A stretch of 64,000 bases of DNA from Acidobacteriaceae bacterium (lineage in GTDB: Bacteria; Acidobacteriota; Terriglobia; Terriglobales; Acidobacteriaceae), in NCBI GenBank assembly GCA_003166855.1, contig PMUM01000330.1, forward strand, positions 541 through 64,540, read 5' to 3'. A model generated the notes under the pieces. The model was not told the origin of the DNA. It did not search any database and saw nothing but the letters and a program-made list of their open reading frames with translations. Made by a program: the position numbers and the translations under genes. This document shows, in pieces, positions 4,839-27,745 of the stretch; position 1 is the stretch's first letter, and each line of letters begins with the position of its first letter.

Positions 4839-4852
4839 TTTACATAAGGAGA

Positions 4853-6109: not shown

Positions 6110-6110
6110 G

Positions 6111-6190
6111 CCCCCCTGTCATCCCCAGCATATCGAAGGACCTCAATTGGCGGCATAAAACACATTAGTCCTTCGCTCTGCTCAGGGGGG
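6111..6190. repeat. REP-like inverted repeat (family 1, GTCATCC..AGC..CGAAGGAC type) just after the NHL gene stop
   Basis: CCCCCTGTCATCCCCAGCATATCGAAGGAC ... GTCCTTCGCTCTGCTCAGGGGGG. The arms are complementary. Related to the copies at 8596-8665, 26617-26818 and 29112-29171. Confidence 0.6.
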
Positions 6191-6552
6191 CAACGTTGTG
6201 AATCCACGCGACTGTGCCAGCTGCTGCGATTTGCAACACACCTGCTGTGAACATCTGCAACTGAGGAATTTCACCAACCAACGTCGGCAGGTGGTTGTTT
6301 TCCCCCACTGAATGCGATTTTCCCGAATCGGAACGTAGGAGGAGAAGTGGATGTACGGGCTTTATATTCAATGACTTAGACGGAAAAATCTCCGAAATCG
6401 GAAACCCGCCTGTTTCGGGCGGCCAGTTGCACTTACATGGTCCGAGGGGCGGTTGCGACGAGTGCCCAGGCACAAAACGCAGCCCACGGCCTAAGCCTCT
6501 GGGAGTTCAGTAACAACTGGAAACACATCATTCATGGAGGTCGTGAAATTTT

Positions 6553-7467: not shown

Positions 7468-7487
7468 ACCTGGGATGATGTGCAAAA

Positions 7488-7517
7488 GGGGGAGAGGATT
7501 ACTCTCCCCTTTTTTTA
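7488..7517 (+). terminator. rho-independent terminator after the tetraheme gene
   Basis: GGGGAGAG-gatta-CTCTCCCC followed by a run of 7 T, about 20 nt after the stop codon. Confidence 0.8.
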
Positions 7518-7550
7518 CGAACACCGTATGAAGTTAGTAAGCGAGGAAAT

Positions 7551-8573: not shown

Positions 8574-8595
8574 TCCCTAAACTTTTTTGTCTTGT

Positions 8596-8665
8596 CATCC
8601 TGAACGAAGTGAAGGATCTATGTACTCTCGGGAAAGTACATAGATCCTTCACTTCGTTCAGGATG
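8596..8665. repeat. perfect 31-bp-stem hairpin (REP family 1); probable transcript-end structure after the PPIase gene
   Basis: CATCCTGAACGAAGTGAAGGATCTATGTACT, an 8-nt loop, then the exact reverse complement. It generates the mirrored pseudo-ORFs 8470..8652 and 8609..8791. Confidence 0.7.
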
Positions 8666-8813
8666 GCAGCGCTAATTTGCGGGTCGGTTTCACTGTTGTG
8701 TGTTCCAACTCGGAGGCCGGGTGATATGCCGCACCTGTCCCGAAAATCCCCCTCCGTGGCAGTTGTAAATCCCCTGTTTTCAATTGATTAGAAATCGGAA
8801 AGATCATTGCCTT

Positions 8814-8829
8814 TGGCAATCGTTGTGCC
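8814..8829 (+). promoter_or_regulatory. sigma54-like -24/-12 element TTGGCAATCGTTGTGC
   Basis: GG-N10-GC spacing is correct: TGGCAa / gTGC versus the consensus TGGCAC-N5-TTGCW. Lies about 50 nt upstream of the beta-barrel gene ATG. Confidence 0.35.
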
Positions 8830-8878
8830 TAACCACATGTAAGTACGAGGCGGTTTCTAGTCGGAAGGGCAGAGCCTA

Positions 8879-10732
8879 ATGAAGGCAGCGAATCGAATCA
8901 TCGGATTAGCAATACTGATGATGGCGCAACTTATATGCGCCCAAAGCGTGCCCCAGTCCCAGACCCCAGAACTCTCGATTGGCGAAAACACAAAGCTGAG
9001 CGCCGGCGGCCTGTTCACCTTCGGATACAGTGGAGATTATGGCGACGTCATTCCCTCCGACCACGGACTGACATTCGGAGTTGACGGCAAGCTCTCCGGT
9101 TATTACTACAATCCCAACTTTATTTCATTCACGGCATCGCCGTACTACAACCAGTCGCGGGCCGATTCCAGCTATCAATCGCTGACTGGGGCGAGCGGCG
9201 TCAGTGCGACAGCCAACCTCTTCAGCGGCAGCCATTTTCCGGGATCGGTGAGCTACCGCTATGACCGGAACAGCAGCGGGACGTTTGGTCTGAGCGGGCA
9301 GCCCAACTTTACGACCATCGGAAAGGGCGATGGTTTCGCTGTCAACTGGAGCGCCCTGCTTCCGAATCTGCCCACTCTTTCTGTTGGATATTCGCAAGGC
9401 GATGGCAGTGGCACGATTTATGGAACCAGCGAAGAAACAACGACGAGCACGAGACTGTTCAATGTGCGCTCCGGCTATCAGATCGCGGGATTTCGGCTGA
9501 ACGCTTTTTACGACCGCAACAGCTTGAACTCAAAATTTCCGGAATTCCTGTCAGGCCAGTCGGAATCGGTGCAGGACTCAACTGGCCACGACGTGGGAGT
9601 TGGAGCGCAACACGCTCTGCCCCTTCACGGCCAGTTTTATGCGAACTACAACCGATCGTCGGCCGAGAGCAACTACTTCTCAGATACGGGACAGAGTTCC
9701 AACGTCTCGAACTATACCGACGATATCGTAAACACCGGCGCGAGTTTTCATCCCACGCAGAAACTATCACTGAATGTCACCGAGAATTACACGAGCAACC
9801 TGAATGGATATCTTGCCCAGAGTTTGAGCAGTAACGGAACCGCACAGCCTGGAATCAGCTTGGGGACCGGGGCGCATTCCTCGACCATAGGCGGTGGCGC
9901 GACCTACCAGTTCACGAATTTTCTTTCGGCGTCATCGCAGGCCACCTATTACGACCAGGAATATTTCGGGAAGAGCTACACCGGAACTTACTTGAGCGGC
10001 ACGGTGAACTACGGTAAGCGGCTGTGGGATATGTTCACGTTCTCCGGCTCGGTGGTGGACAGCAGCAACGGCCAGGGGACCAACGCCTTGGGGTTCATTG
10101 GCAATGTGAATTTCTTTCACCGTTTCAAGGGCTGGCAGACATCAGGCGTATTCAGTTATGCCCAGAATGTGCAGTCGTTGCTGGTGACGTATACGAGCTC
10201 GTACTACAGCTACAGTGTGAATTTGCATCGCCGTTTGCCTGCCGGGTTGACCTGGACGGCGGCGTTCAACGGAACCCGCAGCGGTCTGACGAACTACCAG
10301 GGAACGAGCAGCCAGGGGGAAGGTTATTCGACGTCGCTTAGCTCGCGGAGGTTCGCTGTTACCGGTAATTACACACAGTCGACGGGGATCTCGCTGCTCG
10401 GCGCTGGCGGATTCGTGCCGGTTTCAGGAACACCCGGCGTGACTGATTTCATTACCTTTGGCGGATCAAGTTACGGCGGTGGCATTTCGGCAACCCCGAT
10501 CCGGCGGCTTGTCATCGCGGGGAGTTTTAGTCGCGCTATCAGCAATACGATTGGTGAGACGATCTCGCACAACAATACCGAAATCTACAATGCCCAGTTG
10601 CAGTACCATCTACGCAGGATCGGACTGCAGGCTGGGTACACGCGCTTCACGCAGGGCATCAGCGCGGTGGGAGCGCCAGCCAACACGACATCTTATTTTG
10701 TGGGTATCTCCAGATGGTTCGACTTCTTCTAG
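8879..10732 (+). CDS. outer-membrane beta-barrel protein (porin-like), no heme sites
   Basis: Signal peptide MKAANRIIGLAILMMAQLICAQS. The mature part has no Cys, is S/T/G/N/Y-rich with alternating hydrophobic residues, and ends ...YFVGISRWFDFF (aromatic C-terminus typical of BAM-assembled barrels). Confidence 0.6.
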   Translation: MKAANRIIGLAILMMAQLICAQSVPQSQTPELSIGENTKLSAGGLFTFGYSGDYGDVIPSDHGLTFGVDGKLSGYYYNPNFISFTASPYYNQSRADSSYQSLTGASGVSATANLFSGSHFPGSVSYRYDRNSSGTFGLSGQPNFTTIGKGDGFAVNWSALLPNLPTLSVGYSQGDGSGTIYGTSEETTTSTRLFNVRSGYQIAGFRLNAFYDRNSLNSKFPEFLSGQSESVQDSTGHDVGVGAQHALPLHGQFYANYNRSSAESNYFSDTGQSSNVSNYTDDIVNTGASFHPTQKLSLNVTENYTSNLNGYLAQSLSSNGTAQPGISLGTGAHSSTIGGGATYQFTNFLSASSQATYYDQEYFGKSYTGTYLSGTVNYGKRLWDMFTFSGSVVDSSNGQGTNALGFIGNVNFFHRFKGWQTSGVFSYAQNVQSLLVTYTSSYYSYSVNLHRRLPAGLTWTAAFNGTRSGLTNYQGTSSQGEGYSTSLSSRRFAVTGNYTQSTGISLLGAGGFVPVSGTPGVTDFITFGGSSYGGGISATPIRRLVIAGSFSRAISNTIGETISHNNTEIYNAQLQYHLRRIGLQAGYTRFTQGISAVGAPANTTSYFVGISRWFDFF

Positions 10733-11832
10733 ACGATCGAGGCAGAGCGGTGGTCCGCAGCGGACTGGCTCTTGCCGGGCTGACGGTTGCGCTCGCGCTG
10801 TTGCTGGCGTCCCCTGCAGACGCGGCGAAGCGTCCGAAGGAGATGGTCGCACCCTCCGCACCCGACTTGCTGATGGACGGCGGGCGCAAGCTCTCATTCG
10901 AGCGCAGCTTCAGCCTGGAGCGCGAGGTCAAGCCCAAGCGCAGTTTCTGGACCCGTGTGGTCGACGTGATCGCGGGCCTGCCCGATTTTCATTATCTGGT
11001 AAGCCCCTACAGTGTGGTCACCGATTCACGCGGGCGCATCATCGTTACCGATGTAGCGGCGTCTGGCGTGCACATCTTCGACTTCGAGCAGCAGAAATAT
11101 AAATTCCTCTCGCGGCGCGATGCGAGGAAGGATCCCATGCTCACGCCGCAATGCGTGGCCGTCGATGCCCAAGACAATATCTACGTAACTGATTCGCAGG
11201 CGGGCAAGGTTTTTGTGTTCGATGCGAATGGCAAGTATCGCCGCGCGATTGGCAGCTTGAAAGGTGGCGAAGGATATTTCAAGCGTCCCACGGGCATTGC
11301 CGTGGATTCCGCGGCCCAGCGCATTTACGTTACCGACACGCTTCGTAACAAGATTTTCATGATGGACATGCAGGGCAGCGTGCTGCAGACCATCGGAAAG
11401 ACGGGCGCCGGCGACGGCGAGTTCAACTATCCCACCGAACTGCGGCTGCATGGACAGGATTTGGCGGTGGTCGACGCCATGAATTTCCGGGTGCAGGTGT
11501 TCGACCGCTCCGGCACCTTCCGCTACGCCATCGGCAAGGCTGGGGACGGCGCGGGATGGATCTTCCGGCCCAAAGGCATCGGCTTTGATTCCGAATCGCA
11601 CTTGTATGTGGTCGATGGAGCTTGGGGCGTGGTGCAGGTCTTCGACGAACAGGGGCAGTTGCTGTATTACTTCGGCGGAAAAGGAACCGGGGCAGAACAG
11701 TTTCAACTGCCCACGGGACTGCAAATTGACAATCACGACCGCATATACGTGGTCGACTCCTTCAACCGTCGCGTCCAAGTGTTTCACTACTACGGCGTCA
11801 CGCAGGCGGCCGACGGGAGGAAGCAACCGTGA
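10714..11832 (+). CDS. NHL-repeat six-bladed beta-propeller protein, secreted
   Basis: Six blades (IIVTDVAASGVHIFD, IYVTDSQAGKVFVFDANGK, IYVTDTLRNKIFMMDMQG, LAVVDAMNFRVQVFDRSG, LYVVDGAWGVVQVFDEQGQ, IYVVDSFNRRVQVFHY). An alternative GTG start at 10750 has GAGG upstream and would remove the 19-nt overlap with the barrel gene. Confidence 0.8.
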   Translation: MVRLLLDDRGRAVVRSGLALAGLTVALALLLASPADAAKRPKEMVAPSAPDLLMDGGRKLSFERSFSLEREVKPKRSFWTRVVDVIAGLPDFHYLVSPYSVVTDSRGRIIVTDVAASGVHIFDFEQQKYKFLSRRDARKDPMLTPQCVAVDAQDNIYVTDSQAGKVFVFDANGKYRRAIGSLKGGEGYFKRPTGIAVDSAAQRIYVTDTLRNKIFMMDMQGSVLQTIGKTGAGDGEFNYPTELRLHGQDLAVVDAMNFRVQVFDRSGTFRYAIGKAGDGAGWIFRPKGIGFDSESHLYVVDGAWGVVQVFDEQGQLLYYFGGKGTGAEQFQLPTGLQIDNHDRIYVVDSFNRRVQVFHYYGVTQAADGRKQP

Positions 11833-13745
11833 AGCCGCTCCTGTCACTGGCATGCCTGTTCGTCGTCGCGCAGAGTTTTGCCCAGGTGCAGCCCAACGGG
11901 GATGTGCTGGGCATGCACAACCTGTCTTTGTCCAGTGGCGCGTCGGTCTATTCGCAGGGGAGTCTTGGTTGCACGTTTTGCCACGCTCCGCACAGTGGAT
12001 TGGGCGGCAACACCCCGCTCTGGAATCAGAAGCTGTCGCAGAAGTCGTACGTGCCTTACAGCAGCACCACCGATCCGAATCTGGGCAACACGCAGCCCAC
12101 GCTGGGAGTCACCAGCAGTCTGTGCCTGAGTTGTCATGACGGAACCGTGGCCGTCGGACAGTCCGCGGCTTACGGACAGTTGCCGACGGTCGGATCGCTG
12201 AATGCGGCTGATTCCTTCGGCACTACCCTGACCGGCTCGCACCCGTTCAGCCTGGTCATCCCGCTGAAAGATGCTTCCAACCTGGTTGCTTCGCTGGCCT
12301 CGCAAGGCAAGACGGCCGATCCTACTGGAGCAGTGAAACTGATTAAAGGCAACATCGAATGCACGAGTTGCCACAGTCCACACGTTCAGAACATCGACAG
12401 GATTGCGCAGAATTTTCTGGTGCGCGACAGTTCCAACGCGCAGATGTGTCTGGCGTGCCACGATCCGACGCGCGTGGTGCAGGGACAGGTCAATCCGCTG
12501 GCTGGATTCACCAATAGCATCCATCAGACCGCCACGAATCAGGTTTCCCCCGACGCGCACGCCGGTGCGTACGCCACCGTTGGTGTGAACGCCTGCACGT
12601 CGTGCCACATGTCGCACGATTCGGTCGCTCCGGCCCGCCTGCTTCGGCCGGCGGTACCCTCGGCCCCGTCGTATGATCCGGTCACGCAGAGTTGCATGAC
12701 TTGCCACGGCGGAGGCACCTATCTGGCGCCGGCAATTCCCAACATCATGGCCGAGGTGGCGAAGGTCAGCCATCCCATGCCTTCGGGAAATAACTTCCAC
12801 GATGCCGGCGAAACGCCGCTGCTGAACAACAACCGGCACGCCACTTGCGTGGATTGCCCCAGCGCGCACGCGTCCAATCCGGAGTTGCAGTTTTCCGCGC
12901 CACCCACCATTCGTCCGCCGCAGTCTGGCGCAACCGGCATCAGTGCCCTCGACGGCATCACCGCGATCATTCCAGCCGTCAATCAATACGAAACCTGTCT
13001 GCGTTGTCACGGAACCAGCATCGGCAAGCAGCGGATGGTGATTTACGGTTACGCGCCCATTCGAGTCGTCACGGCTCCAGATTCGTTGAACATCATCCCG
13101 GAACTCGCCTCGACGGCGACGTCGAGCCATCCGGTGACTCACACTCGTTCCAGTCCACTGCCGCAACCCAGCCTGCTGGTGAACATGCTCGACGAGAAGG
13201 GACTGGCATCGGCGCGCCTGGTCGGTACTCAGATCTTCTGTACCGACTGCCACAACAGCGACGACAACCGGGAGTTCGGTGGCGCCGGACCGAATGGTCC
13301 GCATGGGTCGATCAACTCGCACATTCTGGAGCGCAACTATCAGTTCAGCCAGGCGGCCGTCCCTGGCGGACCGGTCACGAATCTTTTCCCCAATCCCGAT
13401 ACCAGCGTCGCCGGCCCTTACTCGATGTGCGCGAAGTGCCACGATCTCACTCAAATCTTCGCGAACACCAGCTTTCCGCAGCACAATCTGCATTCCTATC
13501 AGTATGGGTTCAGCTGCTCGGTCTGCCACACTGCACACGGAAATGGAACCACGTCACCCACTATCACCGGCGAGCGCTTAGTGAATTTCGACGCCAACGT
13601 CGTCGGCGCGAACGGCGCCGCTCCCATCGCTTACAACCACGGCACCAATACCTGCACGCTGATGTGCCACTCCGCCGCCCACAATTCGGATGGAACTGTG
13701 ACCTCGACTGCACCGTCGGTGAAACCTAAAGGGAAAGCGAAGTGA
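11829..13745 (+). CDS. multiheme c-type cytochrome, 10 canonical CXXCH plus one CX3CH and one degenerate CXXCP site, secreted
   Basis: GTG start overlaps the NHL gene stop (GTGA). Signal peptide MKPLLSLACLFVVAQSFAQ. CXXCH counted by eye at 10 positions, plus CTLMCH near the C-terminus and CVDCPSAH at residues 340-347. Confidence 0.9.
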   Translation: MKPLLSLACLFVVAQSFAQVQPNGDVLGMHNLSLSSGASVYSQGSLGCTFCHAPHSGLGGNTPLWNQKLSQKSYVPYSSTTDPNLGNTQPTLGVTSSLCLSCHDGTVAVGQSAAYGQLPTVGSLNAADSFGTTLTGSHPFSLVIPLKDASNLVASLASQGKTADPTGAVKLIKGNIECTSCHSPHVQNIDRIAQNFLVRDSSNAQMCLACHDPTRVVQGQVNPLAGFTNSIHQTATNQVSPDAHAGAYATVGVNACTSCHMSHDSVAPARLLRPAVPSAPSYDPVTQSCMTCHGGGTYLAPAIPNIMAEVAKVSHPMPSGNNFHDAGETPLLNNNRHATCVDCPSAHASNPELQFSAPPTIRPPQSGATGISALDGITAIIPAVNQYETCLRCHGTSIGKQRMVIYGYAPIRVVTAPDSLNIIPELASTATSSHPVTHTRSSPLPQPSLLVNMLDEKGLASARLVGTQIFCTDCHNSDDNREFGGAGPNGPHGSINSHILERNYQFSQAAVPGGPVTNLFPNPDTSVAGPYSMCAKCHDLTQIFANTSFPQHNLHSYQYGFSCSVCHTAHGNGTTSPTITGERLVNFDANVVGANGAAPIAYNHGTNTCTLMCHSAAHNSDGTVTSTAPSVKPKGKAK

Positions 13746-13923
13746 ACGTAACGGGTTTGCCTCAATAGTCTCCAAACGACAAATATGGCAAAGGGGTTAA
13801 AACACACGCTGGATGAGGGGAAAGGCACCGTGGTGGTCCTTTGAAGCCACATCGGCTGCGCCGCACGGAAGATAAACGATTGAAACCATTGCTCAATTGG
13901 TGGCGCTGATGGAAAAGTGGCTT

Positions 13924-13939
13924 TGGCAACTCTGGTGCA
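13924..13939 (+). promoter_or_regulatory. second sigma54-like -24/-12 element TTGGCAACTCTGGTGC
   Basis: GG-N10-GC spacing is correct. Shares the CTTTGGCAA...GTGC context with the element at 8814-8829. Lies about 230 nt upstream of the SGNH/TPR gene. Confidence 0.3.
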
Positions 13940-14165
13940 ATTACCTCAGGTTGCGATGTGTATCTGCGCCCGTACTTCGTTTTTCCGCGGCATAACATGT
14001 TCCGCTTTCAAGCGGAACATAGCATGCACGGGGACCGGCAGGGCTGGATGATTTTCGATCTGACGCTGTGGTTAGGCCTACGGAATCGGATCGAGTCCAG
14101 CCCTGTATCGCGAAAGCCGCAATTTGCCGCTATTTGAAGGACAGATCCTCGGGAACGATCGAACC

Positions 14166-15851
14166 ATGCCTACACCTGCAGAGCCCGTACCCACCAAGAG
14201 CGAACGCCACAACCCCGTAAGGCGGTATGGGCTGCAAATCGCCAGCGCCATTGTGGTGCCTCTGGTGCTCTTGGGTGTGATCGAGGGCGCGTTGCGCCTG
14301 TTCGGCGTCGGCTTTCCCACGGAACTGACAGTGCCTTGCACTCTGCGGGGCAAGCCTGCTGCCTGCTACAACCTGTTTTTTCCCGCGCCTTTCTTCCCGC
14401 CGGGCATGATCAAGACCCCGCAAGCGTATGCGATTCCAGCGGAGAAAACGCAGGGCACCTTCCGCATCTTTGTGCTCGGGGAGTCCGCGGCCATGGGCGA
14501 TCCGGATCCGGCCTACGCTTTCAGCCGGTACCTCGACGTGATGTTGCGGGAACGTTTCCCGTCGATGAAGTTCGAGGTCGTGAACACCGGGAGCGTAGCC
14601 ATCAACTCTCACGTGCTTCTGCCGATCGCGAAGGGTCTCGCGGAACAGCATCCCGACCTGTTCATCATCTACTCAGGCAACAATGAAGTCGTGGGACCCT
14701 ATGGACCCGGGACCGCGCTGACCACGTCCGGCATGAGCCTGCCGGTCATCCGCACCAGCATCTTCGTCCGCTCCACCCGCATCGGCCAGTTCCTCACCAA
14801 GGTCGGAACTCAAAAGAAAGAATGGCGCGGGATGGAGATGTTTCTCGACAAGCAGGTGCGGGAGAGTTCGCCACTCATGCAGTATTCGTACGCCAACTTC
14901 GAGCAGAACCTGCGGGACACCGTTGCCGTTGCGCACAATTCCGGCACCCGAGTCATTATCAGCACCGTCGCCACCAATCTGAAAGACTGCGGACCGTTCT
15001 CATCTCTGCACCGCGAGAACTTGGGTCCTGACGACTTGCGTTCGTGGACAACGCTTGTGCAGCAGGGAGCGGACCTGGAGAGCACTCGCTACTACGCCGA
15101 TGCCCTGAAGGCCTACCAGGCGGCGACCAAGATCGATGACCAGTACGCCGAGTTGGAATTTCGCATTGCCCGGAGCCTGTGGATGCAGGGAGATTATGCG
15201 AGCGCGAAACAGCATTACCTTCGCGCTCGCGATCTCGACACGCTACGCTTCCGCGCCGACACCAGAATCAATGACATCAATCGCTCGGTTGCGTCCTCGT
15301 CTCCGGGCGCAGAACTCGTGGACGCCGATGCCATCTTTTCCAAAGAAAGCCCGAACGGGATCATTGGCAGTGAACTTGTGTATGAGCATGTCCACATGAC
15401 TCCCCTCGGCAATTATCTGCTCGCTCGGGCGATGTTCTTACAGATAGCGAGCAAGTTGCCATCCGAGGCCGGACATCCCTTGACGGAAGCCGACGTTCCC
15501 TCTCAAGCAGAGTGCGAGCAGTTCCTGGCGTTCACCGGCCATGACCGTTCCCGCATCGCGACGGAAATGCTGGATCGCTTGCAGAAGCCGCCTTTTACCA
15601 ATCAACTGAACCACTCCGATCAAATCTTGCGCTTGATGCTCAAATCGCAGGAGCCTGCGGAAAATCCCGATGAAACTGCCGCCGAGTACGAGTGGGCGAT
15701 CCGGAAGAATCCGGGCGACCCAGTCTTGCATTACAACTACGGACTTTTCCTCTTCGAGCACAACCGCAATGCCGCGATCCAACAGCTGAGCTTGTCCCGC
15801 CCATGGGATGGATTTCCAGTTTTTACGCCGGACGGGATGCCCGTGCCATAA
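14166..15851 (+). CDS. SGNH/GDSL-like (DltD/AlgX-like) membrane-anchored protein with TPR repeats
   Basis: N-terminal TM (IASAIVVPLVLLGVIEGAL). FRIFVLGESAAMGDP and IIYSGNNEV blocks resemble SGNH blocks I and III. TPR-like YADALKAYQAATKIDDQYAELEFRIARSLWMQGDYASAKQHY. The track ORF begins at TTG 14124; I use the first ATG. Confidence 0.6.
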   Translation: MPTPAEPVPTKSERHNPVRRYGLQIASAIVVPLVLLGVIEGALRLFGVGFPTELTVPCTLRGKPAACYNLFFPAPFFPPGMIKTPQAYAIPAEKTQGTFRIFVLGESAAMGDPDPAYAFSRYLDVMLRERFPSMKFEVVNTGSVAINSHVLLPIAKGLAEQHPDLFIIYSGNNEVVGPYGPGTALTTSGMSLPVIRTSIFVRSTRIGQFLTKVGTQKKEWRGMEMFLDKQVRESSPLMQYSYANFEQNLRDTVAVAHNSGTRVIISTVATNLKDCGPFSSLHRENLGPDDLRSWTTLVQQGADLESTRYYADALKAYQAATKIDDQYAELEFRIARSLWMQGDYASAKQHYLRARDLDTLRFRADTRINDINRSVASSSPGAELVDADAIFSKESPNGIIGSELVYEHVHMTPLGNYLLARAMFLQIASKLPSEAGHPLTEADVPSQAECEQFLAFTGHDRSRIATEMLDRLQKPPFTNQLNHSDQILRLMLKSQEPAENPDETAAEYEWAIRKNPGDPVLHYNYGLFLFEHNRNAAIQQLSLSRPWDGFPVFTPDGMPVP

Positions 15852-15867
15852 GAACGTCTACCTGTGC

Positions 15868-17346
15868 CTAGAACTTGTTGTACATGAACTGCGCCGTGCT
15901 GGCCCCGCGCGTCAAAGTCACGATCAATAAGAAAATCAATGCCAGCGCGTAGAGCGGCGGGAGCCAGAACCAGCGCGAGCGTGCCATGAACCCGATGATT
16001 CCCGTGTGAGCTGCGGATTCCGAAGTCTGCGCTTCACTGGAGTAGCGTTCGAGTGCGTCGCTCACGAACACCACGATCGCGTATCCCGCAGCCATCGCCG
16101 CCACCAATAGATACAGACTCCCACCCAGAAAGTGCGAACCGTAGCTCGCGGGCGACAGGACAGCCGACAACATCTGACCTGCTTCAGGTAGGGAATTGGC
16201 GCGGAAGAAAATCCATCCTAGATTGATGAGCAGCATGGTGGCCATCAAGGAAACCGGTATCCAGAACCTGGCGGCTGGCTCCCAGTCGAACTTCCGCTGC
16301 ATCCGCTGCAGTTGACGATGCAAGACCAGCAGCACTCCGTGATAGCAGCCCCACAGCAGAAAGAGCACAGTCGCTTTGTGCCACAGCCCGAACAGAATCA
16401 TCGCGACCAGCAGAGCCAGATTTCGCCACCACACTTCCCGGCGCAACATCGCCAGCGGGAGAAAAATGTAGTCACGAATCCAGAACGACAGCGACATATG
16501 CCATCGGGTCCAGAAGATCGAGACGTTAGTGGATTGGAAGGGGCGCGCGAAGTTTTCGGGGACGATGAAGCCCATCGCTTGAGCGGCGCCGATTGCGATG
16601 TGCGAGTATCCGGCGAAATCGAGAAAAAGCTGCAGGCCGTATCCCAGCGCCAGGCACCAGACATCTGTGCCACTCCAGTGCGTGACGCGATCGAACCCGC
16701 TCGCGATATCATCGCCGCCCAGGATCCCTTGGCCCAGCAGTTTGGCCAGTTGCACCATGAACACGCCGGTAGCGATACGCCTGAACCCGTGACCGATGTC
16801 GTCCCAGCGCGTCAGTGTCTCGGAACGGAACTGCGGCAGCATGTCGGGCATGCGGCAGACTGGTCCAGAGATCGTGACGGGAAAGAAAACCATGTACAGG
16901 GCAAACTCAAAAACAGAAGCATTGAGTTCTTCCCCGCGATAAAGATCAAAGAGGTAACTCATCGCCTGGAAGGTCCAGAACGACAATCCCAAAGGCTGAG
17001 CCAGATGCGAGAACCTCTGCAACGACGAAAACGGAAGATGGACGGCCACCTCGGGGAGGTACTTGAAGCTGCCGAGCAACGCCAGATTTAACAGAATGCC
17101 GAGAGAGAGGATGGCCGCGGAAGGCCTACGCTGAAGCCACCGCCCGATCAGGAAGTTGAGCACGGTCGATGAAGCCAGAACGGCCGCGAACCATGGTCCC
17201 CAGGTGACATAGAGCGCATAACTTGCAATCAGCAGCACCGTCTGCCGCGCAATTCGCGAGCGGACCTTCGCGAAGATAACTACGCAAAGCAGAAACAGCA
17301 GACAGTACAGGATGCCTTGGAACAACCTTCCTCCGTGCTTCAACAA
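15868..17346 (-). CDS. MBOAT family O-acyltransferase (DltB/AlgI-like)
   Basis: 492-aa polytopic membrane protein with the MBOAT signature region NVSIFWTRWHMSLSFWIRDYIFLPL (conserved His). TTG start as given in the track. Confidence 0.85.
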   Translation of the reverse strand: MLKHGGRLFQGILYCLLFLLCVVIFAKVRSRIARQTVLLIASYALYVTWGPWFAAVLASSTVLNFLIGRWLQRRPSAAILSLGILLNLALLGSFKYLPEVAVHLPFSSLQRFSHLAQPLGLSFWTFQAMSYLFDLYRGEELNASVFEFALYMVFFPVTISGPVCRMPDMLPQFRSETLTRWDDIGHGFRRIATGVFMVQLAKLLGQGILGGDDIASGFDRVTHWSGTDVWCLALGYGLQLFLDFAGYSHIAIGAAQAMGFIVPENFARPFQSTNVSIFWTRWHMSLSFWIRDYIFLPLAMLRREVWWRNLALLVAMILFGLWHKATVLFLLWGCYHGVLLVLHRQLQRMQRKFDWEPAARFWIPVSLMATMLLINLGWIFFRANSLPEAGQMLSAVLSPASYGSHFLGGSLYLLVAAMAAGYAIVVFVSDALERYSSEAQTSESAAHTGIIGFMARSRWFWLPPLYALALIFLLIVTLTRGASTAQFMYNKF

Positions 17347-17474
17347 ACCGAGGTGCGCGGGAGACCAGCTTTTGACACGCCCGCCGAAGACAGCGAACCA
17401 GAATAGCGAACCAGAATAAAGGTCTGATTCGCCAGTTACAAGAACACTCGCCTCCCTGGATGCAATAATGTTGC

Positions 17475-19166
17475 GTGCGATTCCGCAATCTGATCGAAGC
17501 CCTCAGCGCGGCCCCGCCCGACCGTCCATTTATCACGTCATGGATTGACGAAGATGAGCAGGTGACGCTGACCTTTGCCGACTTTCGCCGGCATGCGTAT
17601 CTGCAGGCTGGGATGCTTCGTGACCAGGGTGTGACCGCCGGCGACCGCGTTGTCATCATCATGCCACAGGGCATTCCGGCGATGACTACGTTTGTCGGAG
17701 CGATGATGCTGGGCGCGGCGCCCACGTTCCTCGCCTATCCGAACTTCAAGATCGAGCCATCCAAGTACCGCTCCGGATTGACCGGGGTCACCGCGAATCT
17801 CAAGGCCAAGACCGTGGTCATCGACGAAGCATTCCCCGACGAGATGCTGGGCCATGTGTCGCTCGACGAAGGAACCAGGCTGGTTCGTGCAGGAACTGGA
17901 AACGTCGCGGACGACAAAGATTTGGTTCGTCCCGACATTCAGGCCGATAGTCTGGCATTCATCCAGCATTCGGCGGGAACAACCGGCCTGCAAAAAGGAG
18001 TGGCCCTGACTCACGCGGCGGTGCTGCGTCAACTCGATCACCTATCGCAGGCGCTCAAGATCGATACTGCTACCGACCGGATTTACAGTTGGCTGCCGCT
18101 CTATCACGATATGGGCTTGATCGCATGCTTCATGCTGCCCATGGTTTTTCACATCCCGATCGTAATGCAATCGCCGCTCGACTGGGTGATGCACCCGGAA
18201 ACCATGTTGCAGATCATCAGCGAATACAAATGCACTCTGGCATGGCTGCCGAATTTTGCCTTCCAGTTTGCGCCCCGTCGGACTTCTCAGCGCTCTCGAA
18301 CACAATACGATCTGTCGTCGGTGCGCGCCTTGATCAACTGTTCTGAGCCGGTTCGCGCGAAGAGTATGAGCGAGTTTCAGAATGCGTTCGGGGCGGCAGG
18401 ACTTAAGAGAACGGCCCTGCAATCCTCATACGCCATGGCTGAGAATGTTTTCGCGGTCACCCAGTCCGACCTTTCACGGCCGTCCGGTCCGCCCCGCTTA
18501 TGGGCGGATGGTCCGCAATTTCGAGGTGCCCGTCAGATCGTAGCCGTTGCGGAGGGGGCTTCGGGCGCGGTTGCGTTCACCTCCTCAGGCCGATTGCTAC
18601 CCCATCATGAAATTCGCATCGCCTCCGATTCTGGCGCCGTTCTCGGAGACGGCCGCGTCGGCGAGATTCTGGTCAAAAGCGACTGCCTTTTTGACGGCTA
18701 CCATAACCGTCCCGACCTTACCGCACAGGCAATCATCGACGGCTGGTACCACACCGGCGATCTGGGCTTCTGTCTGGAAGGCGAACTCTATGTCGTAGGC
18801 AGAAAGAAAGACCTGCTGATCATTGGCGGCGAGAATATTTATCCCCAGGACATCGAAGAAATTGTTGCCAGCCATTCCACCGTTCGCGACGGCCGTGTGA
18901 TCGCCATGGGCCTGTACAATCCCGATCTCGGGACGGAAGACATTGTGGTCGTTGCAGAGTTAGAGCATGAAGAACAGCTCGCGCAAGCCACCAAAATTGA
19001 AGGCGAGATTCGAAGCCTTGTCGTGGCCGGAATGGGAGTCGCGATCCGTACAATCTTTCTGAAGCCCCCCAAATGGATTGTGAAGAGCACCGCCGGCAAG
19101 CCGGCCCGCTCCGCGACTCGCGAGAAGCTGTTGCAGGAGCATCCGGAACTTGGAACCGAGTCTTAG
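17475..19166 (+). CDS. adenylate-forming enzyme (acyl/aminoacyl-AMP ligase, DltA/FAAL-like)
   Basis: AMP-binding core motif IQHSAGTTGLQKGVALTH, YHTGDLG, GRKKDLLIIGGENIYPQDIE. GTG start. Divergent from the MBOAT gene and immediately upstream of an ACP gene. Confidence 0.8.
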   Translation: MRFRNLIEALSAAPPDRPFITSWIDEDEQVTLTFADFRRHAYLQAGMLRDQGVTAGDRVVIIMPQGIPAMTTFVGAMMLGAAPTFLAYPNFKIEPSKYRSGLTGVTANLKAKTVVIDEAFPDEMLGHVSLDEGTRLVRAGTGNVADDKDLVRPDIQADSLAFIQHSAGTTGLQKGVALTHAAVLRQLDHLSQALKIDTATDRIYSWLPLYHDMGLIACFMLPMVFHIPIVMQSPLDWVMHPETMLQIISEYKCTLAWLPNFAFQFAPRRTSQRSRTQYDLSSVRALINCSEPVRAKSMSEFQNAFGAAGLKRTALQSSYAMAENVFAVTQSDLSRPSGPPRLWADGPQFRGARQIVAVAEGASGAVAFTSSGRLLPHHEIRIASDSGAVLGDGRVGEILVKSDCLFDGYHNRPDLTAQAIIDGWYHTGDLGFCLEGELYVVGRKKDLLIIGGENIYPQDIEEIVASHSTVRDGRVIAMGLYNPDLGTEDIVVVAELEHEEQLAQATKIEGEIRSLVVAGMGVAIRTIFLKPPKWIVKSTAGKPARSATREKLLQEHPELGTES

Positions 19167-19181
19167 GAGGGGAATCTCCCC

Positions 19182-19433
19182 ATGACCGACGAAGCGCAGC
19201 AAATGGTCCAACACATTGTTCAACTCATTCGAAAGCCGGGCGTGAACCTGGACGAGAATACCCCGCTGGTTTCGTCGGGACTGATCGATTCGATGTCCCT
19301 GATCGATTTGCTGGTGAAGCTCGAGGACCTCACCCACATGCGTATTCCGGCAGGGAAGGTGCAACCCAAGGATCTGGATACCGTGGCAAAAATGTTTGCG
19401 ACCGCGCAGCGGGTAGGGAAGCCTCGCAAGTAA
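19182..19433 (+). CDS. acyl/peptidyl carrier protein (DltC-like)
   Basis: 83 aa with the phosphopantetheine attachment motif GLIDSMSLIDLLVKLE. AGGAGG Shine-Dalgarno. 15 nt after the ligase gene. Confidence 0.8.
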   Translation: MTDEAQQMVQHIVQLIRKPGVNLDENTPLVSSGLIDSMSLIDLLVKLEDLTHMRIPAGKVQPKDLDTVAKMFATAQRVGKPRK

Positions 19434-19477
19434 ACTTCCTCAACTCCGCAACCGAGAACCTGAGTCTCCAGCAACGC

Positions 19478-19930
19478 CTATTGCTGCTCTCGCATCGCCA
19501 TCGGGTCCAGGTGGTGGCTGATCATCGCTCTAGCCGTCTCCTCCTCAATCATTTGATTGCGATCCCATTCCGGACGCAACACCATGGCCTTGATGTGGAA
19601 ATGCGACTCCTTCGATGCATCATCAATGCGAATCAACATTTCGTTTTTCTGCAATCGGAAACGCGTGATCTCGGCCAACGGGATGAGCTGGTCGGAAGTC
19701 TTGCCACTGATGACGTACACCACCTTATCCCCCACCGGAACGTACTCGGGACACATCGCCCCGGCTTCGACTTTGCCCTCGCCCGACATGGCGGCCATGA
19801 ATCCATGCTGCGGACCCAGGCAATCCGTCATGCGCATGCGGATGATCGTGCCTTGCTGGTGAGAGTGATTTTGCGCCGAGAGAAATATCGGAAAGGCGAG
19901 CACAAAAATACAGCACAGCATACGTTTCAT
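19478..19930 (-). CDS. hypothetical secreted protein
   Basis: 150 aa with signal peptide MKRMLCCIFVLAFPIFLSAQ. 12 nt downstream of the VWA gene. No motif recognised. Confidence 0.5.
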   Translation of the reverse strand: MKRMLCCIFVLAFPIFLSAQNHSHQQGTIIRMRMTDCLGPQHGFMAAMSGEGKVEAGAMCPEYVPVGDKVVYVISGKTSDQLIPLAEITRFRLQKNEMLIRIDDASKESHFHIKAMVLRPEWDRNQMIEEETARAMISHHLDPMAMREQQ

Positions 19931-19942
19931 AGGCCCTCAAAG

Positions 19943-20869
19943 TTACCAAGCTCGGTTGGGATAGTAATATCCGCTTCGGCTGCGGAACTGCAGGTTCAGG
20001 TTGTGTGTGGGAAGAATCCGGACAGTGTGAAATCCGGAAACGTGACTGGGAAGTCGATAGCTGATCGAATAGCTTGCTCTGAACCCTTCCAGGATTACAT
20101 TCAGTGCCTGCGCTGCGCCGCCCGGGGCGGGAAAATATCGGCCTCCGGTTGTGTCGGCAAGACTGCGCAGCGTCGCAGCGCCTTGCGACCGGTAAGCGGG
20201 CTTGTTGAGATCAATGCAATCCAGTTCCACCTCGCTTCTCAGTGCGGAGTTGACGGCATCGCCCATCGCGTTCCGGCTGATCGTATCCATACCATCCGAG
20301 AAGACGATGAGGACTTTCTCGGCGTGCTCATCCCCGTGGCTGGAAAGATAGTCCGCCGCGAACACGATCGTGTCGAACAGCGGAGTCAGGCCTCGGGCAC
20401 CGGCCGCCGGAATCCGCTCGAGGGCGTGCGATGCCCGGCAGTTTCCGGCGCACAGCAGCGCAGGCTGTGAAGCCGCGAAAGAGAAGATGGAAAGATTCTC
20501 GTCAGGAACGCCATCGGTCTGCGACACCAGTTCCAGAACGTCCGCCATTTCCTGGTGGAATCGCGGTGTGGCGGATTCGCTGGCGTCGATCAGAATCGCG
20601 ATTTCAAGCTTCGTCCAATCGGAACGGGTAAAGCTTTGAAAGTTGCGGACGATAACATCAGTGTCAACGATTGCAAAGTCGCTGGCCTGCAACGTGGCCA
20701 CGCCGTGATTGTTCTGGTCGGTGGCAGAAAAGCTGAGGCGCACCTCGCTAGCGTTGGTGTGGTAGGTGTAGTCGGGCCGGTCCCCTGCGATTCCCGGGGA
20801 GATCCCCCCGCACAAGACTAGAAGCGAGAGCAGGGGCGCGGTATGCCAACAAGATAGACGTCTGGCCAT
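19943..20869 (-). CDS. VWA domain protein (acidobacterial VWFA-related family)
   Basis: MIDAS-type DxSxS (IAILIDASESA), secreted N-terminus, and a preceding beta-rich domain (SEVRLSFSATDQNNHGVATLQASDFAIV) as in the Acidobacteria-restricted VWFA-related family. Confidence 0.7.
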   Translation of the reverse strand: MARRLSCWHTAPLLSLLVLCGGISPGIAGDRPDYTYHTNASEVRLSFSATDQNNHGVATLQASDFAIVDTDVIVRNFQSFTRSDWTKLEIAILIDASESATPRFHQEMADVLELVSQTDGVPDENLSIFSFAASQPALLCAGNCRASHALERIPAAGARGLTPLFDTIVFAADYLSSHGDEHAEKVLIVFSDGMDTISRNAMGDAVNSALRSEVELDCIDLNKPAYRSQGAATLRSLADTTGGRYFPAPGGAAQALNVILEGFRASYSISYRLPSHVSGFHTVRILPTHNLNLQFRSRSGYYYPNRAW

Positions 20870-21090: not shown

Positions 21091-21744
21091 TTACTGGCTC
21101 ACTTTCGGCTTGCGCGCCTCGGCAATCAATTTTTGGACCGCGGCTTTTTTGTCGTCGGACAGCGTCGGATTTAACTTCAGCAACTGCTGCCACGCTGCCA
21201 CTGCGCCGCTGGGATCGTTCTTGGCCTGCAAGCGAATCATTCCCAGGTTGAACAGAGAATTCGCGTCTTTGGGATCGTAGGTGAGCGATTGCTGCAGTTG
21301 CTGGATCGCTCCGTCGGCATCCCTTTCATAGAATAGGCACGACGCTAGATCGGTGCGCGCGGCCACATTCTTGGGATCGGCGTCGATGGCCTTCTGGAAG
21401 TATCCCGCAGCCTCTTTGAACTGATGGGTCGATTTGTATAGCGTTCCGATCTGATTCAGCAGGTCGGAGTTGTTGGGGTCAGTCTTCAGTTTCGCGAGAA
21501 GAGGTTCGGCCTTTTTATCGGCCATGTGCTTCATCTCTTCCAGACTCGGCATCTGTGGCGTACCGCTCGGAATGCCCGTGGCGGCGGCCACTTGCGGCGC
21601 AGGAGAAGGTTGTGCGGAGCGCGACGCCGACCCGCGAAACAGATAGCCCAAAGCCAAGCCCACAACCAGACAGATGGTGGCCATGGCATACACCTGCGAC
21701 GTCCGCCAGCCTCGCGCTACGCCGGGTTCTGCTTCATTCGCCAT
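21091..21744 (-). CDS. membrane-anchored TPR repeat protein
   Basis: TM anchor (VYAMATICLVVGLALGYLF) followed by TPR units (NQIGTLYKSTHQFKEAAGYFQKAIDADPKN ...). Start set to the ATG with AAAGGAAG upstream; the track start 21807 is 21 codons longer. Confidence 0.75.
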   Translation of the reverse strand: MANEAEPGVARGWRTSQVYAMATICLVVGLALGYLFRGSASRSAQPSPAPQVAAATGIPSGTPQMPSLEEMKHMADKKAEPLLAKLKTDPNNSDLLNQIGTLYKSTHQFKEAAGYFQKAIDADPKNVAARTDLASCLFYERDADGAIQQLQQSLTYDPKDANSLFNLGMIRLQAKNDPSGAVAAWQQLLKLNPTLSDDKKAAVQKLIAEARKPKVSQ

Positions 21745-21978
21745 AGTTCTTCCTTTAGGATTCCAGGTCGTAAACCTCCGATATGGCACGCGTGGTTCCA
21801 TCTTCATTCAACATTCAATCCTTGCATACCCTTGTTTTTACAATGACTTACGAGGAGGACCTTGGCGCTGAGAGATGCGCCTACGTTTGAGCTCGGGGCT
21901 TTCTTCGCAGTTTCTGCGCTTTTTTCCCGCGACCTCGCAGGACCAGGCAATTTCCCTCCAAGTCAAATCACATTCTTG

Positions 21979-21994: not shown

Positions 21995-22283
21995 GTCCGC
22001 ATCCGGCCATCTTCGTTAGCATTGCGGTTGTCCTTCCCCTAGGTGCTCGGAAACTGCCTTTTTGGGCCCTTTCCCTTCCGAGAGTGAGGCTTTATGCAAG
22101 GCCTCAGAAGTCGGTCCTTTCGCCCATGCTTGGCGGAGGTGGGTCCCCACCCGCATCCCTTAGGACTGATTCTGTCTCGTTCCCTGCGTGATCCCTTACC
22201 CCCGCCTTGATGCTGGGGCCCGGCCCCGATGTCGCACTCAGTCCTGTGGCTTCAGACGACGTAGATCTGCAGGGAGGCGAACA

Positions 22284-23894
22284 ATGACGCGGCGCTCCTT
22301 TCTCACAGTGGTTATCCTGCTGGCCTCCACTCCGGCATTCGCAGGCACTCCGAAATCCAATCCCGATCAGGCGATCGACCGAATTGTCGCCAACGAACGA
22401 GCCCTGAGCACCACCATGCGCAGCTACAGCCCGATGGTAGAAACCTACCTCCAGCGCATGCAGCCCGACACGACCATGGGATTCCTCCCCGCCGAGGACC
22501 ACTACTTCCTCGGGCGCGTTCAGTTTCAGCAGGCGAAGGAGGAGTTCTATCTCGACAAGCGCCTGGTCGAACGCATGGCGGGTTCGTTTTCGAAGCTCTA
22601 TTCCCTCAGCCCCGTGGGCTTCTCCGCCATGATCTTTGTCGATCGCTCCGGCTTTGACCGCAAGAATTACGAACTGCACTACTTGCGCAGCGAGTTTCTG
22701 GGCGAGGTACGCTGCCTGCTCTTCGAGGTGAATCCCCGCAAGGATCGGAAGGTGCCCCGCTTCAAAGGCGCCATCTGGGTGGAAGATGGCGACTATCAGA
22801 TTGTTCGTTTCAACGGCAGTTACGGCACCTTCCATATCGATAGCTGGCGCATGAACTTGCGCGAAGGCGTCTGGCTTCCCGCCGTGGTGTACTCCGAAGA
22901 ATTCGATTCCAACAAACCGCAAACCCAGGGTCCCCGATTGAAGGCGCAGACGCGTATATGGGGCTACAACCTCGGCCCGCGCCGGGAATCAGAGTTTGCG
23001 GAAATCGTCGTGGATCCTGCGGTCGCCAAAGACTCGTCGGAGAATCCCGACCAGAGTCCGCTCGACATTCAGCGCTCCTGGCAGCGCCGCGCCGAAGACA
23101 ACGTCATCATCAAGCTTGAAGAACTCGGACTGGTCGTCCCGGAAGGCGAGGTCGACAAGGTTCTGCAAACCGTCATCACGAATCTGGAAGTCACCAACAA
23201 GATTGTTCTCGATCCCGAGGTTCGCTGCCGGATTATTCCCACAACGCCGATCGAAGTCGCCACGATCGGCCACACGATCCTGGTCAGCCGCGGATTGCTC
23301 GACGCCTTGCCGAACGAAGCTGCGCTCGCCGTGATTCTGGCTCACGCTCTGGCGCACGCGACCTTGGGACATGACCTCGACAGCAGTTTCGCGTTCAACG
23401 ACCGCATGGTCGTCCCCAGCCTGCGGCAGTTGCCGCTGTTTGATTTCAAGCACACTCCGGAGCAGGAACGGGAAGCCGATGCGCTCGGATTGAAGTTCCT
23501 TGCCAACTCACCCTACAAAGACAACCTTGCCGAAGCGGGACTGTTTCTCAAGGCTCTGGCCAAGTATGAGCGGAAGGTTCCCAATCTGACCAAGGCCACC
23601 CTCGGCGAGAGCCTGGTCGCCGACAATCGGATTTCGTTCATGAGTCCCATTGCCGACGCCGCTCCCGCGCTCGAACTCGACAATCCCGAGCAGATCGTCG
23701 CCTTACCCCTCGGCAGCCGCGTGAAGGTCGATCCCTGGGCGGGACAGTTGAAGTTCGTGAAAGCGCGGCCGCCCCGCATCTACTCGGCGAAAGACAAATT
23801 GGCGTTGGAAGTCACACCCTTCTCGCCATACTTGGTTCGTCTAAAGCCTGTCGCGGCGAGTGGAGTTCCAGAGGATTCAACCGAAGACCGTTGA
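22284..23894 (+). CDS. M48-family peptidase-like protein with HALAH in place of HEXXH (probable pseudo-protease), secreted
   Basis: Start at ATG 22284 (AGGGAGG upstream, signal peptide FLTVVILLASTPAFAG). LAVILAHALAHATLGH aligns to the M48 motif xxxLAHExxHxxxxH with Glu replaced by Ala. The downstream EQEREADALGLKFL matches the M48 third-ligand ExxAD block. Confidence 0.6.
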   Translation: MTRRSFLTVVILLASTPAFAGTPKSNPDQAIDRIVANERALSTTMRSYSPMVETYLQRMQPDTTMGFLPAEDHYFLGRVQFQQAKEEFYLDKRLVERMAGSFSKLYSLSPVGFSAMIFVDRSGFDRKNYELHYLRSEFLGEVRCLLFEVNPRKDRKVPRFKGAIWVEDGDYQIVRFNGSYGTFHIDSWRMNLREGVWLPAVVYSEEFDSNKPQTQGPRLKAQTRIWGYNLGPRRESEFAEIVVDPAVAKDSSENPDQSPLDIQRSWQRRAEDNVIIKLEELGLVVPEGEVDKVLQTVITNLEVTNKIVLDPEVRCRIIPTTPIEVATIGHTILVSRGLLDALPNEAALAVILAHALAHATLGHDLDSSFAFNDRMVVPSLRQLPLFDFKHTPEQEREADALGLKFLANSPYKDNLAEAGLFLKALAKYERKVPNLTKATLGESLVADNRISFMSPIADAAPALELDNPEQIVALPLGSRVKVDPWAGQLKFVKARPPRIYSAKDKLALEVTPFSPYLVRLKPVAASGVPEDSTEDR

Positions 23895-23906
23895 TGGAGG
23901 ACCTTA

Positions 23907-24617
23907 ATGAGTGTCTCCGCGCGGTTCGTCCTTCGCGTGATTGTCGCGTGCCTGATGGGCACGTGCGTATGCTACGCAGGTTCGCATCCCGTTCGAGTCG
24001 AGCAGAACTCAAACTGCCTGGAGTGCCACGCCGATCACGCCACGGGAGATCATGTTCATCCTGCCGTCACGATGGGGTGCACTTCCTGCCACAGCATCGA
24101 CAACCGGGAAGATGCCACCTATGTCGTTCTCAAGCAGACAAAGGGCGTCGCTTGCTTCGATTGTCATGACCCGGCCGCGTTCCTCTATCCGCACCTTCCC
24201 TATGCTTCCGGGATGTGCACGCGCTGCCACAATCCGCACGTTTCAGCGAATCCTCGCCTGCTGCGCGCTAAAGTGAACGAGCTTTGCCTGAGTTGTCACC
24301 TGCGCACGAAGGAGAGCGTGTCCTCGCGCTACATGCCGACGATCGAACTCACCGCCAACAACAGCATGGGACACCCCTACCTGCGGCATCCCGTGAGCGG
24401 CAGCCACGATGCGCTCAACGGTGGGGAGATGTCGTGCATAAGTTGCCATCAGGCGCATGGAGGAATGCAACTGCACCTGCTCAAGGCGGCGGCTGAGATT
24501 CCGGAAGATGCCCTGAACCACGACACGGAGACCAAGGACATGTGCCGCCAGTGTCATCTACGGATGTGGGGACTCGAGGGCGCCCCGCTAAAGAAGAAGC
24601 ACAAGAAGGATCACTAG
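23907..24617 (+). CDS. heptaheme c-type cytochrome, secreted
   Basis: 7 CXXCH motifs in 236 aa. Signal-anchor FVLRVIVACLMGTCVCYA. GGAGGA Shine-Dalgarno. 12 nt after the M48-like gene. Confidence 0.85.
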   Translation: MSVSARFVLRVIVACLMGTCVCYAGSHPVRVEQNSNCLECHADHATGDHVHPAVTMGCTSCHSIDNREDATYVVLKQTKGVACFDCHDPAAFLYPHLPYASGMCTRCHNPHVSANPRLLRAKVNELCLSCHLRTKESVSSRYMPTIELTANNSMGHPYLRHPVSGSHDALNGGEMSCISCHQAHGGMQLHLLKAAAEIPEDALNHDTETKDMCRQCHLRMWGLEGAPLKKKHKKDH

Positions 24618-27691: not shown

Positions 27692-27745
27692 AGGTGGAAT
27701 GCGGGCATTCCAGTTTCAACATTCGTTCGCGGACTCGAAATTGTC

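Follow-up and report, generated by a model that had tools for sequence, protein, structure and literature searches.

The Dlt system of Firmicutes (DltA, DltC, DltB, DltX and DltD), which D-alanylates teichoic acids, comprises an adenylating enzyme, a carrier protein with a Ser-phosphopantetheine site, a membrane-bound O-acyltransferase (MBOAT), a Tyr shuttle motif and a membrane-anchored extracytoplasmic SGNH enzyme. The same elements, including a DltB-like MBOAT, are encoded by four genes within a 64-kb stretch of DNA from an Acidobacteriaceae bacterium (contig PMUM01000330.1 of assembly GCA_003166855.1, positions 541 to 64,540; hereafter the window). This module differs from Dlt in several respects. 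Its ligase is of the fatty acyl-AMP ligase (FAAL) type and not DltA; its shuttle motif is fused to the MBOAT, whereas Dlt has a separate DltX; its SGNH protein falls outside the DltD family and bears helices resembling tetratricopeptide repeats (TPRs). The genes do not form one co-directional operon, and the host is a diderm acidobacterium, presumed to be without teichoic acids. Most of the components by which Dlt membership is recognised (a DltA-type ligase, a TIGR04091 DltB, a separate DltX and a DltD-family protein) are not found in the module.

MBOATs and SGNH proteins of the Gram-negative PatA/PatB, AlgI/AlgJ/AlgX and WssH/WssI systems share with the module two extra C-terminal MBOAT helices, a fused FxYxxF tail and an SGNH partner with a transmembrane (TM) anchor. 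The FxYxxF acyl-shuttle motif lies on the separate microprotein DltX in Dlt; it is fused and Tyr-acetylated in PatA-type MBOATs (PMC12148441). PatA/PatB-type systems are fed by acetyl-CoA and have neither carrier nor ligase; in the module, by contrast, the MBOAT is conserved together with a carrier and the enzyme that loads it. In existing models carrier-fed MBOAT acylation is special to Gram-positive Dlt, and MBOAT-SGNH pathways other than Dlt are carrier-less and use acyl-CoA (PMC12148441); the module departs from this division.

Two other systems resemble parts of the module. Cassettes of the sxtI-J-K-L type contain a member of the same SGNH-TPR family (40-62% identity) and a DUF5989 protein, a homologue of the MBOAT hairpin that ends in FIYxLF; their donor, however, is a carbamoyltransferase, and the transferred group would be carbamoyl. 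AerO/AerP/AerQ of cyanobacterial varlaxin clusters are a stand-alone adenylating enzyme, a carrier and an MBOAT encoded together (PMC10143770). They are located within non-ribosomal peptide synthetase (NRPS) clusters and decorate a small molecule, whereas the module is without NRPS or polyketide synthase (PKS) genes and has an anchored SGNH partner. This trio of adenylation domain, peptidyl carrier protein and MBOAT from the varlaxin cluster is the nearest published parallel; a literature search did not find the combination of MBOAT, acyl carrier protein (ACP) and fatty acyl-AMP ligase, and gave nothing relevant for MBOAT and FAAL.

We estimate at roughly 60% the probability that the four genes encode one trans-membrane O-acylation relay with a Dlt-type carrier donor and a PatA/B-type fused shuttle. 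The module joins these two because a carrier and its loader accompany an MBOAT with a fused tail. This architecture is common in the abundant Acidobacteria of peat and soil. It would imply that diderms can export ligase-chosen acyl groups to the envelope, and these may be fatty chains rather than acetyl.

The four genes and their products

The gene order is SGNH-TPR (14166-15851, + strand, 561 aa, P0001), MBOAT (15868-17346, - strand, 492 aa, P0002), ligase (17475-19166, + strand, 563 aa, GTG start, P0003) and carrier (19182-19433, + strand, 83 aa, P0004). The SGNH-TPR and MBOAT genes are convergent with a gap of 16 bp; MBOAT and ligase are divergent with a gap of 128 bp. The MBOAT gene has a TTG start codon, and its true start is uncertain. 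A preliminary description of the locus had listed four genes at these positions, with a divergent ligase and an 83-aa carrier with a serine in a DSM motif; all four open reading frames (ORFs) were confirmed, and the Pfam matches and carrier motif agree with it. A promoter and terminator scan of 13600-19700 gave fewer sites than shuffled sequence.

The ligase matches AMP-binding in Pfam (2.8e-52). Its best NCBIfam matches are PRK07768 (7.5e-102) and the FAAL model PRK09192 (7e-96), followed by FadD32, FadD21, FadD28 and MbtM, all below their curated cutoffs; DltA is not among the NCBIfam matches listed. The generic amino-acid adenylation model scores far lower (121 against 341 bits). The top PDB relatives are the FAAL domains 7r7g, 3kxw (Legionella) and 3pbk (E. 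coli). Residues 280-420 align end to end with FadD32 with three gapped positions, and the alignment includes the FAAL-specific insertion stretch (residues about 332-375; 18468-18599, + strand); acyl-CoA ligases align only from about residue 367. By sequence the ligase can be assigned to the FAAL type and not to the DltA type, contrary to the preliminary description, which had proposed a small acid and a DltA-like enzyme. The acid that it activates is most likely fatty or otherwise hydrophobic, and chain length cannot be derived from the sequence. That the ligase would pass the acyl group to a carrier rather than to CoA is suggested by a single observation, the adjacent carrier gene, which begins 15 bp 3' of the ligase gene.

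The carrier matches PP-binding (PF00550, 9e-5). The serine of its motif LIDSMSL is Ser37, the phosphopantetheine attachment site (codon 19290-19292, + strand); D36 and S37 are invariant in 13 orthologues. Mean column identity among these orthologues is 84%, and the carrier is the best conserved of the four products. Its best NCBIfam match is DltC, and this match is weak (2.4e-6, 27.5 bits against a cutoff of 68).

The MBOAT matches PF03062 at 4.9e-15 (56.1 bits, gathering cutoff 27), which places it in the superfamily. Its sole NCBIfam match is DltB, TIGR04091 (5.5e-52; 177 bits, cutoff 375), aligned at model positions 11-376 (nearly all of the model), beyond which the protein has a 110-residue C-terminal extension. 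Its sole PDB relatives are the DltB structures 8jem and 6bug (1e-29 to 1e-30). H283 (codon 16498-16500, - strand) and the catalytic-type H323 (16378-16380, - strand) are invariant among 21 homologues. The DltB-like core reaches about residue 381; an AlphaFold2 (AF2) model has two extra TM helices at about 409-441 and 458-478, followed by a tail with low predicted local distance difference test scores (pLDDT).

The tail ends in FMYNKF. In all 33 MBOAT homologues of the fetched loci, [FLM][MI]YxxF forms the C-terminal end, and Y489 (codon 15880-15882, - strand) and F492 are invariant among homologues. When the hairpin of residues 450-492 (15871-15999, - strand) is compared with DUF5989 by hhalign, 42 columns align up to both C-termini with a probability of 95.8% (E 7e-9). 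PF19451 (DUF5989) is matched directly by 7 of the 21 MBOATs; the window MBOAT falls below the cutoff (E 0.0033). These alignments indicate that the hairpin, which like DUF5989 has one TM helix ahead of a C-terminal FxYxxF motif, is homologous to the free-standing, SxtK-sized DUF5989 microprotein. As the MBOAT bears its own fused FxYxxF tail, a separate DltX is not needed.

In the SGNH-TPR protein, Pfam (E<=0.01) finds TPR families and a weak NonGDSL lipase match and nothing else; DltD is not matched at this threshold. The AF2 model, built from 40 family members, has a pLDDT of 92.8 and a predicted TM-score (pTM) of 0.91. It consists of a TM anchor (residues 17-45) and an SGNH core (about 96-432); a helical, TPR-like stretch is inserted at 288-378, and further helices of this kind lie towards the C-terminus (413-542). 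The best VIA match of the core is the acetylxylan esterase 7ddy (Z 17.7, root-mean-square deviation 2.7 A, 192 residues). Other Foldseek and VIA neighbours are GDSL/SGNH esterases, acetylxylan esterases and TesA, with PatB lower in the Foldseek list; structures of DltD and AlgX/AlgJ are absent from the top 50 Foldseek and VIA rows, which does not prove that the fold differs.

Blocks I, III and V of the SGNH superfamily are all present in this fold. Among 40 family members at 36-54% identity, G105 and S107 of block I (LGESAAMG) are invariant, with Ser107 (codon 14484-14486, + strand) the predicted nucleophile. In block III (GNNE, residues 171-174) G171 and E174 are invariant, and N172 and N173 nearly so. 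Block V contains the DxxH-type acid/His pair E407-H-V-H410 (15384-15395, + strand): both histidines (H408 and H410) are invariant, and family members have either E or D as the acid. In the region of the anchor helix P32, E40 and G49 are invariant.

The likeness to DltD proposed in the preliminary description holds for the SGNH fold and not for the family. The same description regarded the TPR fusion as atypical, which is true only in comparison with DltD. The SGNH-TPR family is very large (2243 clusters at 50% identity, E<1e-30); since most of these clusters, typically of 700-900 aa, bear longer TPR tails, the fusion is the norm within the protein's own family.

Co-conservation and exchangeable donors

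A genome collection was scanned with the family alignment, and 80 loci, of at least 574 genome loci of the family, were classified by tblastn. The Acidobacteriota type accounts for 46 loci (53-86% identity); 35 have at least 6 kb on both flanks. MBOAT, FAAL and ACP genes lie beside the SGNH-TPR gene in 28 of these 35. The MBOAT alone is present in one locus, a carbamoyltransferase set (see below) in another one, and donor genes are absent from the vicinity in five. As a conserved association, the Dlt pattern of ligase, carrier, MBOAT and an SGNH protein outside the cytoplasm is therefore borne out. Grouping of the ligase with fatty-acyl-AMP ligases of an unrelated pathway, together with an MBOAT/SGNH pair not co-conserved with ligase and carrier, had been named beforehand as evidence to the contrary. 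Half of this applies: the ligase does group with these enzymes, but its pathway is not an unrelated one, since the MBOAT/SGNH pair is conserved along with it.

The association is found in at least four gene orders, with the MBOAT on either strand and the trio upstream or downstream of the SGNH-TPR gene. In some Terriglobia loci a VWA gene and a gene for a 150-aa protein are inserted between SGNH-TPR and MBOAT. Loci L040 and L043 contain a divergent set (MBOAT 31%, FAAL 34-39% and ACP 43% identity), whose proteins are classified in the same way.

Four of the five genomes without donor genes at the SGNH-TPR gene have an MBOAT orthologue elsewhere. Surroundings were fetched for three of the genomes with a separated MBOAT, and in two of them MBOAT, FAAL and ACP still adjoin. 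In G154 a second SGNH-TPR copy adjoins a split MBOAT and a FAAL. In G155 (L094:10393-11575) the FAAL beside MBOAT and carrier is replaced by an LnmK-family acyltransferase/decarboxylase (121 bits, cutoff 100); the MBOAT in this genome is 64% identical to that of the window. From these arrangements the MBOAT-carrier pair appears to be constant and the loader exchangeable; nothing else speaks as strongly for the carrier as the donor of the MBOAT.

A complex of MBOAT and carrier was also predicted. It scored 0.50 (best control 0.00), with at least 95% of contacts in common between runs and a partner pLDDT of at least 78. Of 80 solved complexes, 58 reach the mark that it passed, as do 2 of 110 mismatched pairs; among those at the mark, scores of 0.60 or less come from only 7 of the 80 solved complexes and from both passing mismatches. 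The prediction lends weak support to the pairing. As the DltB-DltC complex has already been solved, the pass may simply mirror the likeness to Dlt.

A different donor set accompanies SGNH-TPR relatives from Myxococcota, Planctomycetota and further phyla (40-46% identity) and from a single Acidoferrales locus (62%). Its members are a carbamoyltransferase of the NodU/CmcH type, a membrane protein of the SxtJ family and a DUF5989 protein of 52 aa; 16 of 34 such loci have it (L003:5588-10199; L053-L060, L072, L073, L079, L082, L084 and L086 among them). The DUF5989 proteins end in APFIYxLF. In gene sizes and order this cassette corresponds to sxtI-J-K-L of saxitoxin clusters, in which SxtL is a GDSL lipase; to our knowledge, SxtJ and SxtK have no assigned role. 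Since DUF5989 resembles the shuttle hairpin of the MBOAT, the cassette may form a relay that carries carbamoyl groups across the membrane. That one SGNH-TPR family is found with such swappable donor sets suggests that extracytoplasmic acylation and carbamoylation follow a general plug-in design. Genes for a pseudouridine synthase, HAD, YjeF and ABC proteins are conserved neighbours in the loci outside Acidobacteriota; these housekeeping genes were rejected as functional partners and are regarded as local synteny.

Ten more distant homologues of the SGNH-TPR protein, all from Acidobacteriota (25-32% identity), have no recognisable donor genes nearby, and multihaem cytochromes occur near one only. 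Locus L098 (G119, contig C114:39500-59000) contains a 26%-identity homologue, from another family of Acidobacteriota, among four multihaem cytochrome ORFs (6-26 CxxCH) and an NHL protein.

Two other genes recur at module loci. One encodes a protein of about 546-548 aa (L092:10271-11917, - strand), found between MBOAT and FAAL or beside the carrier gene also in L025, L030, L042, L013, L029 and L045. Its N-terminal 400 residues match no family and its C-terminus is a TPR domain. The possibility that this membrane-plus-TPR protein is a paralogue of the SGNH-TPR protein was rejected on comparison; it may be a fifth, optional component. The other is an amine-oxidase/desaturase-like gene of the flavin adenine dinucleotide (FAD) type, contained in five of the fetched loci. 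In L023 (15276-16793, + strand) it lies 8 bp after the carrier gene, and its product may modify the acyl chain there.

The proposed relay and its alternatives

The families, folds, conserved catalytic residues, shuttle motif and co-conservation are observed; the chemistry of every step, which way the acyl group travels, what it is and where it ends up are inferred from them. The relay would begin in the cytoplasm, where the ligase would adenylate a carboxylic acid and load it as a thioester on the phosphopantetheine arm at Ser37 of the carrier. The MBOAT would take the acyl group from the carrier at the cytoplasmic face, by means of the catalytic-type His323, and put it on Tyr489 of its own tail at the periplasmic side. 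The SGNH-TPR enzyme would accept it on Ser107, with E407 and H410, and pass it to a hydroxyl of an envelope acceptor.

Several points weigh against this relay. Its chemistry is deduced from sequence, structure models and gene context, and none of the four proteins reaches the curated cutoff of any named NCBIfam equivalog. The support from the predicted MBOAT-carrier complex is weak, and in five well-flanked loci the SGNH-TPR gene has no donor genes in its vicinity. Since pathways other than Dlt use acyl-CoA (PMC12148441), an MBOAT with a fused tail could still do so here. The LnmK-type variant points to a short acyl group, possibly propionyl-type, as the substrate of a closely related MBOAT; the acyl group therefore need not be long, and the fatty-acid reading is weakened. 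Finally, the closest structural matches of the SGNH-TPR protein are carbohydrate esterases and TesA, and SGNH enzymes can be esterases.

The last point leads to the best of the alternatives, which we nevertheless consider unlikely: the relay is real, but the SGNH-TPR protein, instead of being its terminal transferase, has an Ape1-like role as an esterase and edits the modification or takes it off, or the acceptor is a membrane lipid and not a polymer or protein. Both carbohydrate esterases and TesA, a thioesterase/lysophospholipase, agree with this, as do the many family members elsewhere that have no donor genes within 10 kb. However, the invariant P32, E40 and G49 of the anchor helix recall PatB and DltD, which dock on their MBOAT, and the module contains no second SGNH gene. 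Moreover, the family pairs with two donor systems that share only the Tyr-shuttle element, and an acyl-accepting role fits this pairing.

A true Dlt orthologue in a diderm is improbable. Such a system would place D-alanine or another small amino or hydroxy acid on an anionic envelope polymer as a charge-modifying ester. DltB is the only named relative of the MBOAT core and DltC, though weakly matched, the best of the carrier; in addition, the founding LnmK makes a short (propionyl) carrier thioester, and one genome has an LnmK-like loader. The ligase argues against it: its best matches are all FAAL or long-chain enzymes, the FAAL insertion region is present, and the amino-acid adenylation model scores far lower. 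A separate DltX is also missing, and the DltD family is unmatched.

Least probable of all is that two unrelated units lie side by side, an acyl-CoA-fed PatA/PatB-type acetylation pair (MBOAT and SGNH-TPR) and a FAAL and ACP serving some other lipid or natural-product pathway; the fused FxYxxF tail is typical of acyl-CoA-using MBOATs and the same genome has an ordinary carrier-less MBOAT-SGNH pair on another contig, but MBOAT, FAAL and ACP adjoin through rearrangements and when split from the SGNH gene, a divergent MBOAT is accompanied by an equally divergent FAAL and ACP, another carrier loader stands beside MBOAT and ACP where FAAL has been lost, and no PKS, NRPS or lipid-synthesis genes are conserved as neighbours of the module.

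Genomic context and candidate acceptors

The acceptor in the proposed relay could be a glycan of the periplasm or cell surface, or else a protein. The conserved neighbours do not include a polysaccharide synthase or exporter. A cluster encoding an OmcE-like multihaem cytochrome, an NHL propeller, a peptidyl-prolyl isomerase and a beta-barrel protein (3339-13745, + strand; Pfam) ends 420 bp 5' of the SGNH-TPR gene. In Terriglobia this cluster is conserved: of the 35 well-flanked Acidobacteriota loci, 28 have it no more than 10 kb from the SGNH-TPR gene, including those with an inverted arrangement and with each donor type; the association is not seen in the loci outside Acidobacteriota. The cytochrome apparatus is a candidate target because the module adjoins this cluster. 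The module is embedded in an island of extracellular-cytochrome genes, a setting that the preliminary description had missed, as it had the fused shuttle tail of the MBOAT. The linkage is suggestive rather than proof, since one inversion explains the inverted order and the genomes are all related.

A pair of genes encoding a family 2 glycosyltransferase (GT2) and a PMT_2 protein (GT-C, protein-mannosyltransferase-like) is located 7 kb 3' of the carrier gene (26825-29038, - strand; Pfam). The pairing of GT2 with GT-C is of the kind used in periplasmic glycosylation. In Geobacter, GT2 and GT39 genes are reported to follow omcE (PMC13712944); omcE clusters precede large glycosylation gene blocks, and OmcE bears probable glycans (2026 mBio paper). 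Given these blocks and the GT2 and PMT_2 genes of the window, the cytochrome apparatus or its glycan is worth weighing as the target, as a minority possibility. Acyltransferases are not mentioned in the preprint on peat cytochromes.

A more far-reaching proposal is speculative and, taken as a whole, rather unlikely. The module would be assembly machinery of an OmcE-like nanowire/porin system, ester-linking an acyl chain to the cytochrome subunit, its glycan or an anchoring polymer, so that in Acidobacteria lipidation or acylation would take the role proposed for the Geobacter omcE glycosylation block. The SGNH-TPR family would then be a universal periplasmic receiver for FAAL/ACP/MBOAT, LnmK/ACP/MBOAT and carbamoyltransferase/SxtJ/DUF5989 donors. 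If the adjacent cytochrome apparatus is indeed the target, the module bears on how uncultured soil bacteria build and anchor extracellular electron-transfer structures.

Several other genes of the window recur at such loci. Those for a 150-aa secreted protein (19478-19930, - strand) and a VWA protein (19943-20869, - strand; Pfam) follow the carrier gene and are recurrent neighbours in other Terriglobia loci. A membrane-anchored protein with a CcmH/CycH-like TPR (21091-21807, - strand; Pfam E 3.6e-10, just below the cutoff) comes next; a CcmH-like TPR gene lies directly 5' of SGNH-TPR in many Terriglobia loci. On the other flank of the island are genes for an M48-like protein and then a multihaem cytochrome (22188-24617, + strand; Pfam). 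A pair of this type also adjoins the separated MBOAT-FAAL-ACP trio in G152.

The same genome contains a second, carrier-less MBOAT gene (L002, contig C440:2657-3829), which has an in-frame TAG after codon 355 and may be a pseudogene or an assembly error. The encoded protein ends in FLYFQF. The gene overlaps the start of a gene for a 426-aa anchored SGNH/AlgJ-like protein with GDS and DDTH motifs (GDS...DDTH), and together they form a pair of the ordinary PatA/PatB type.

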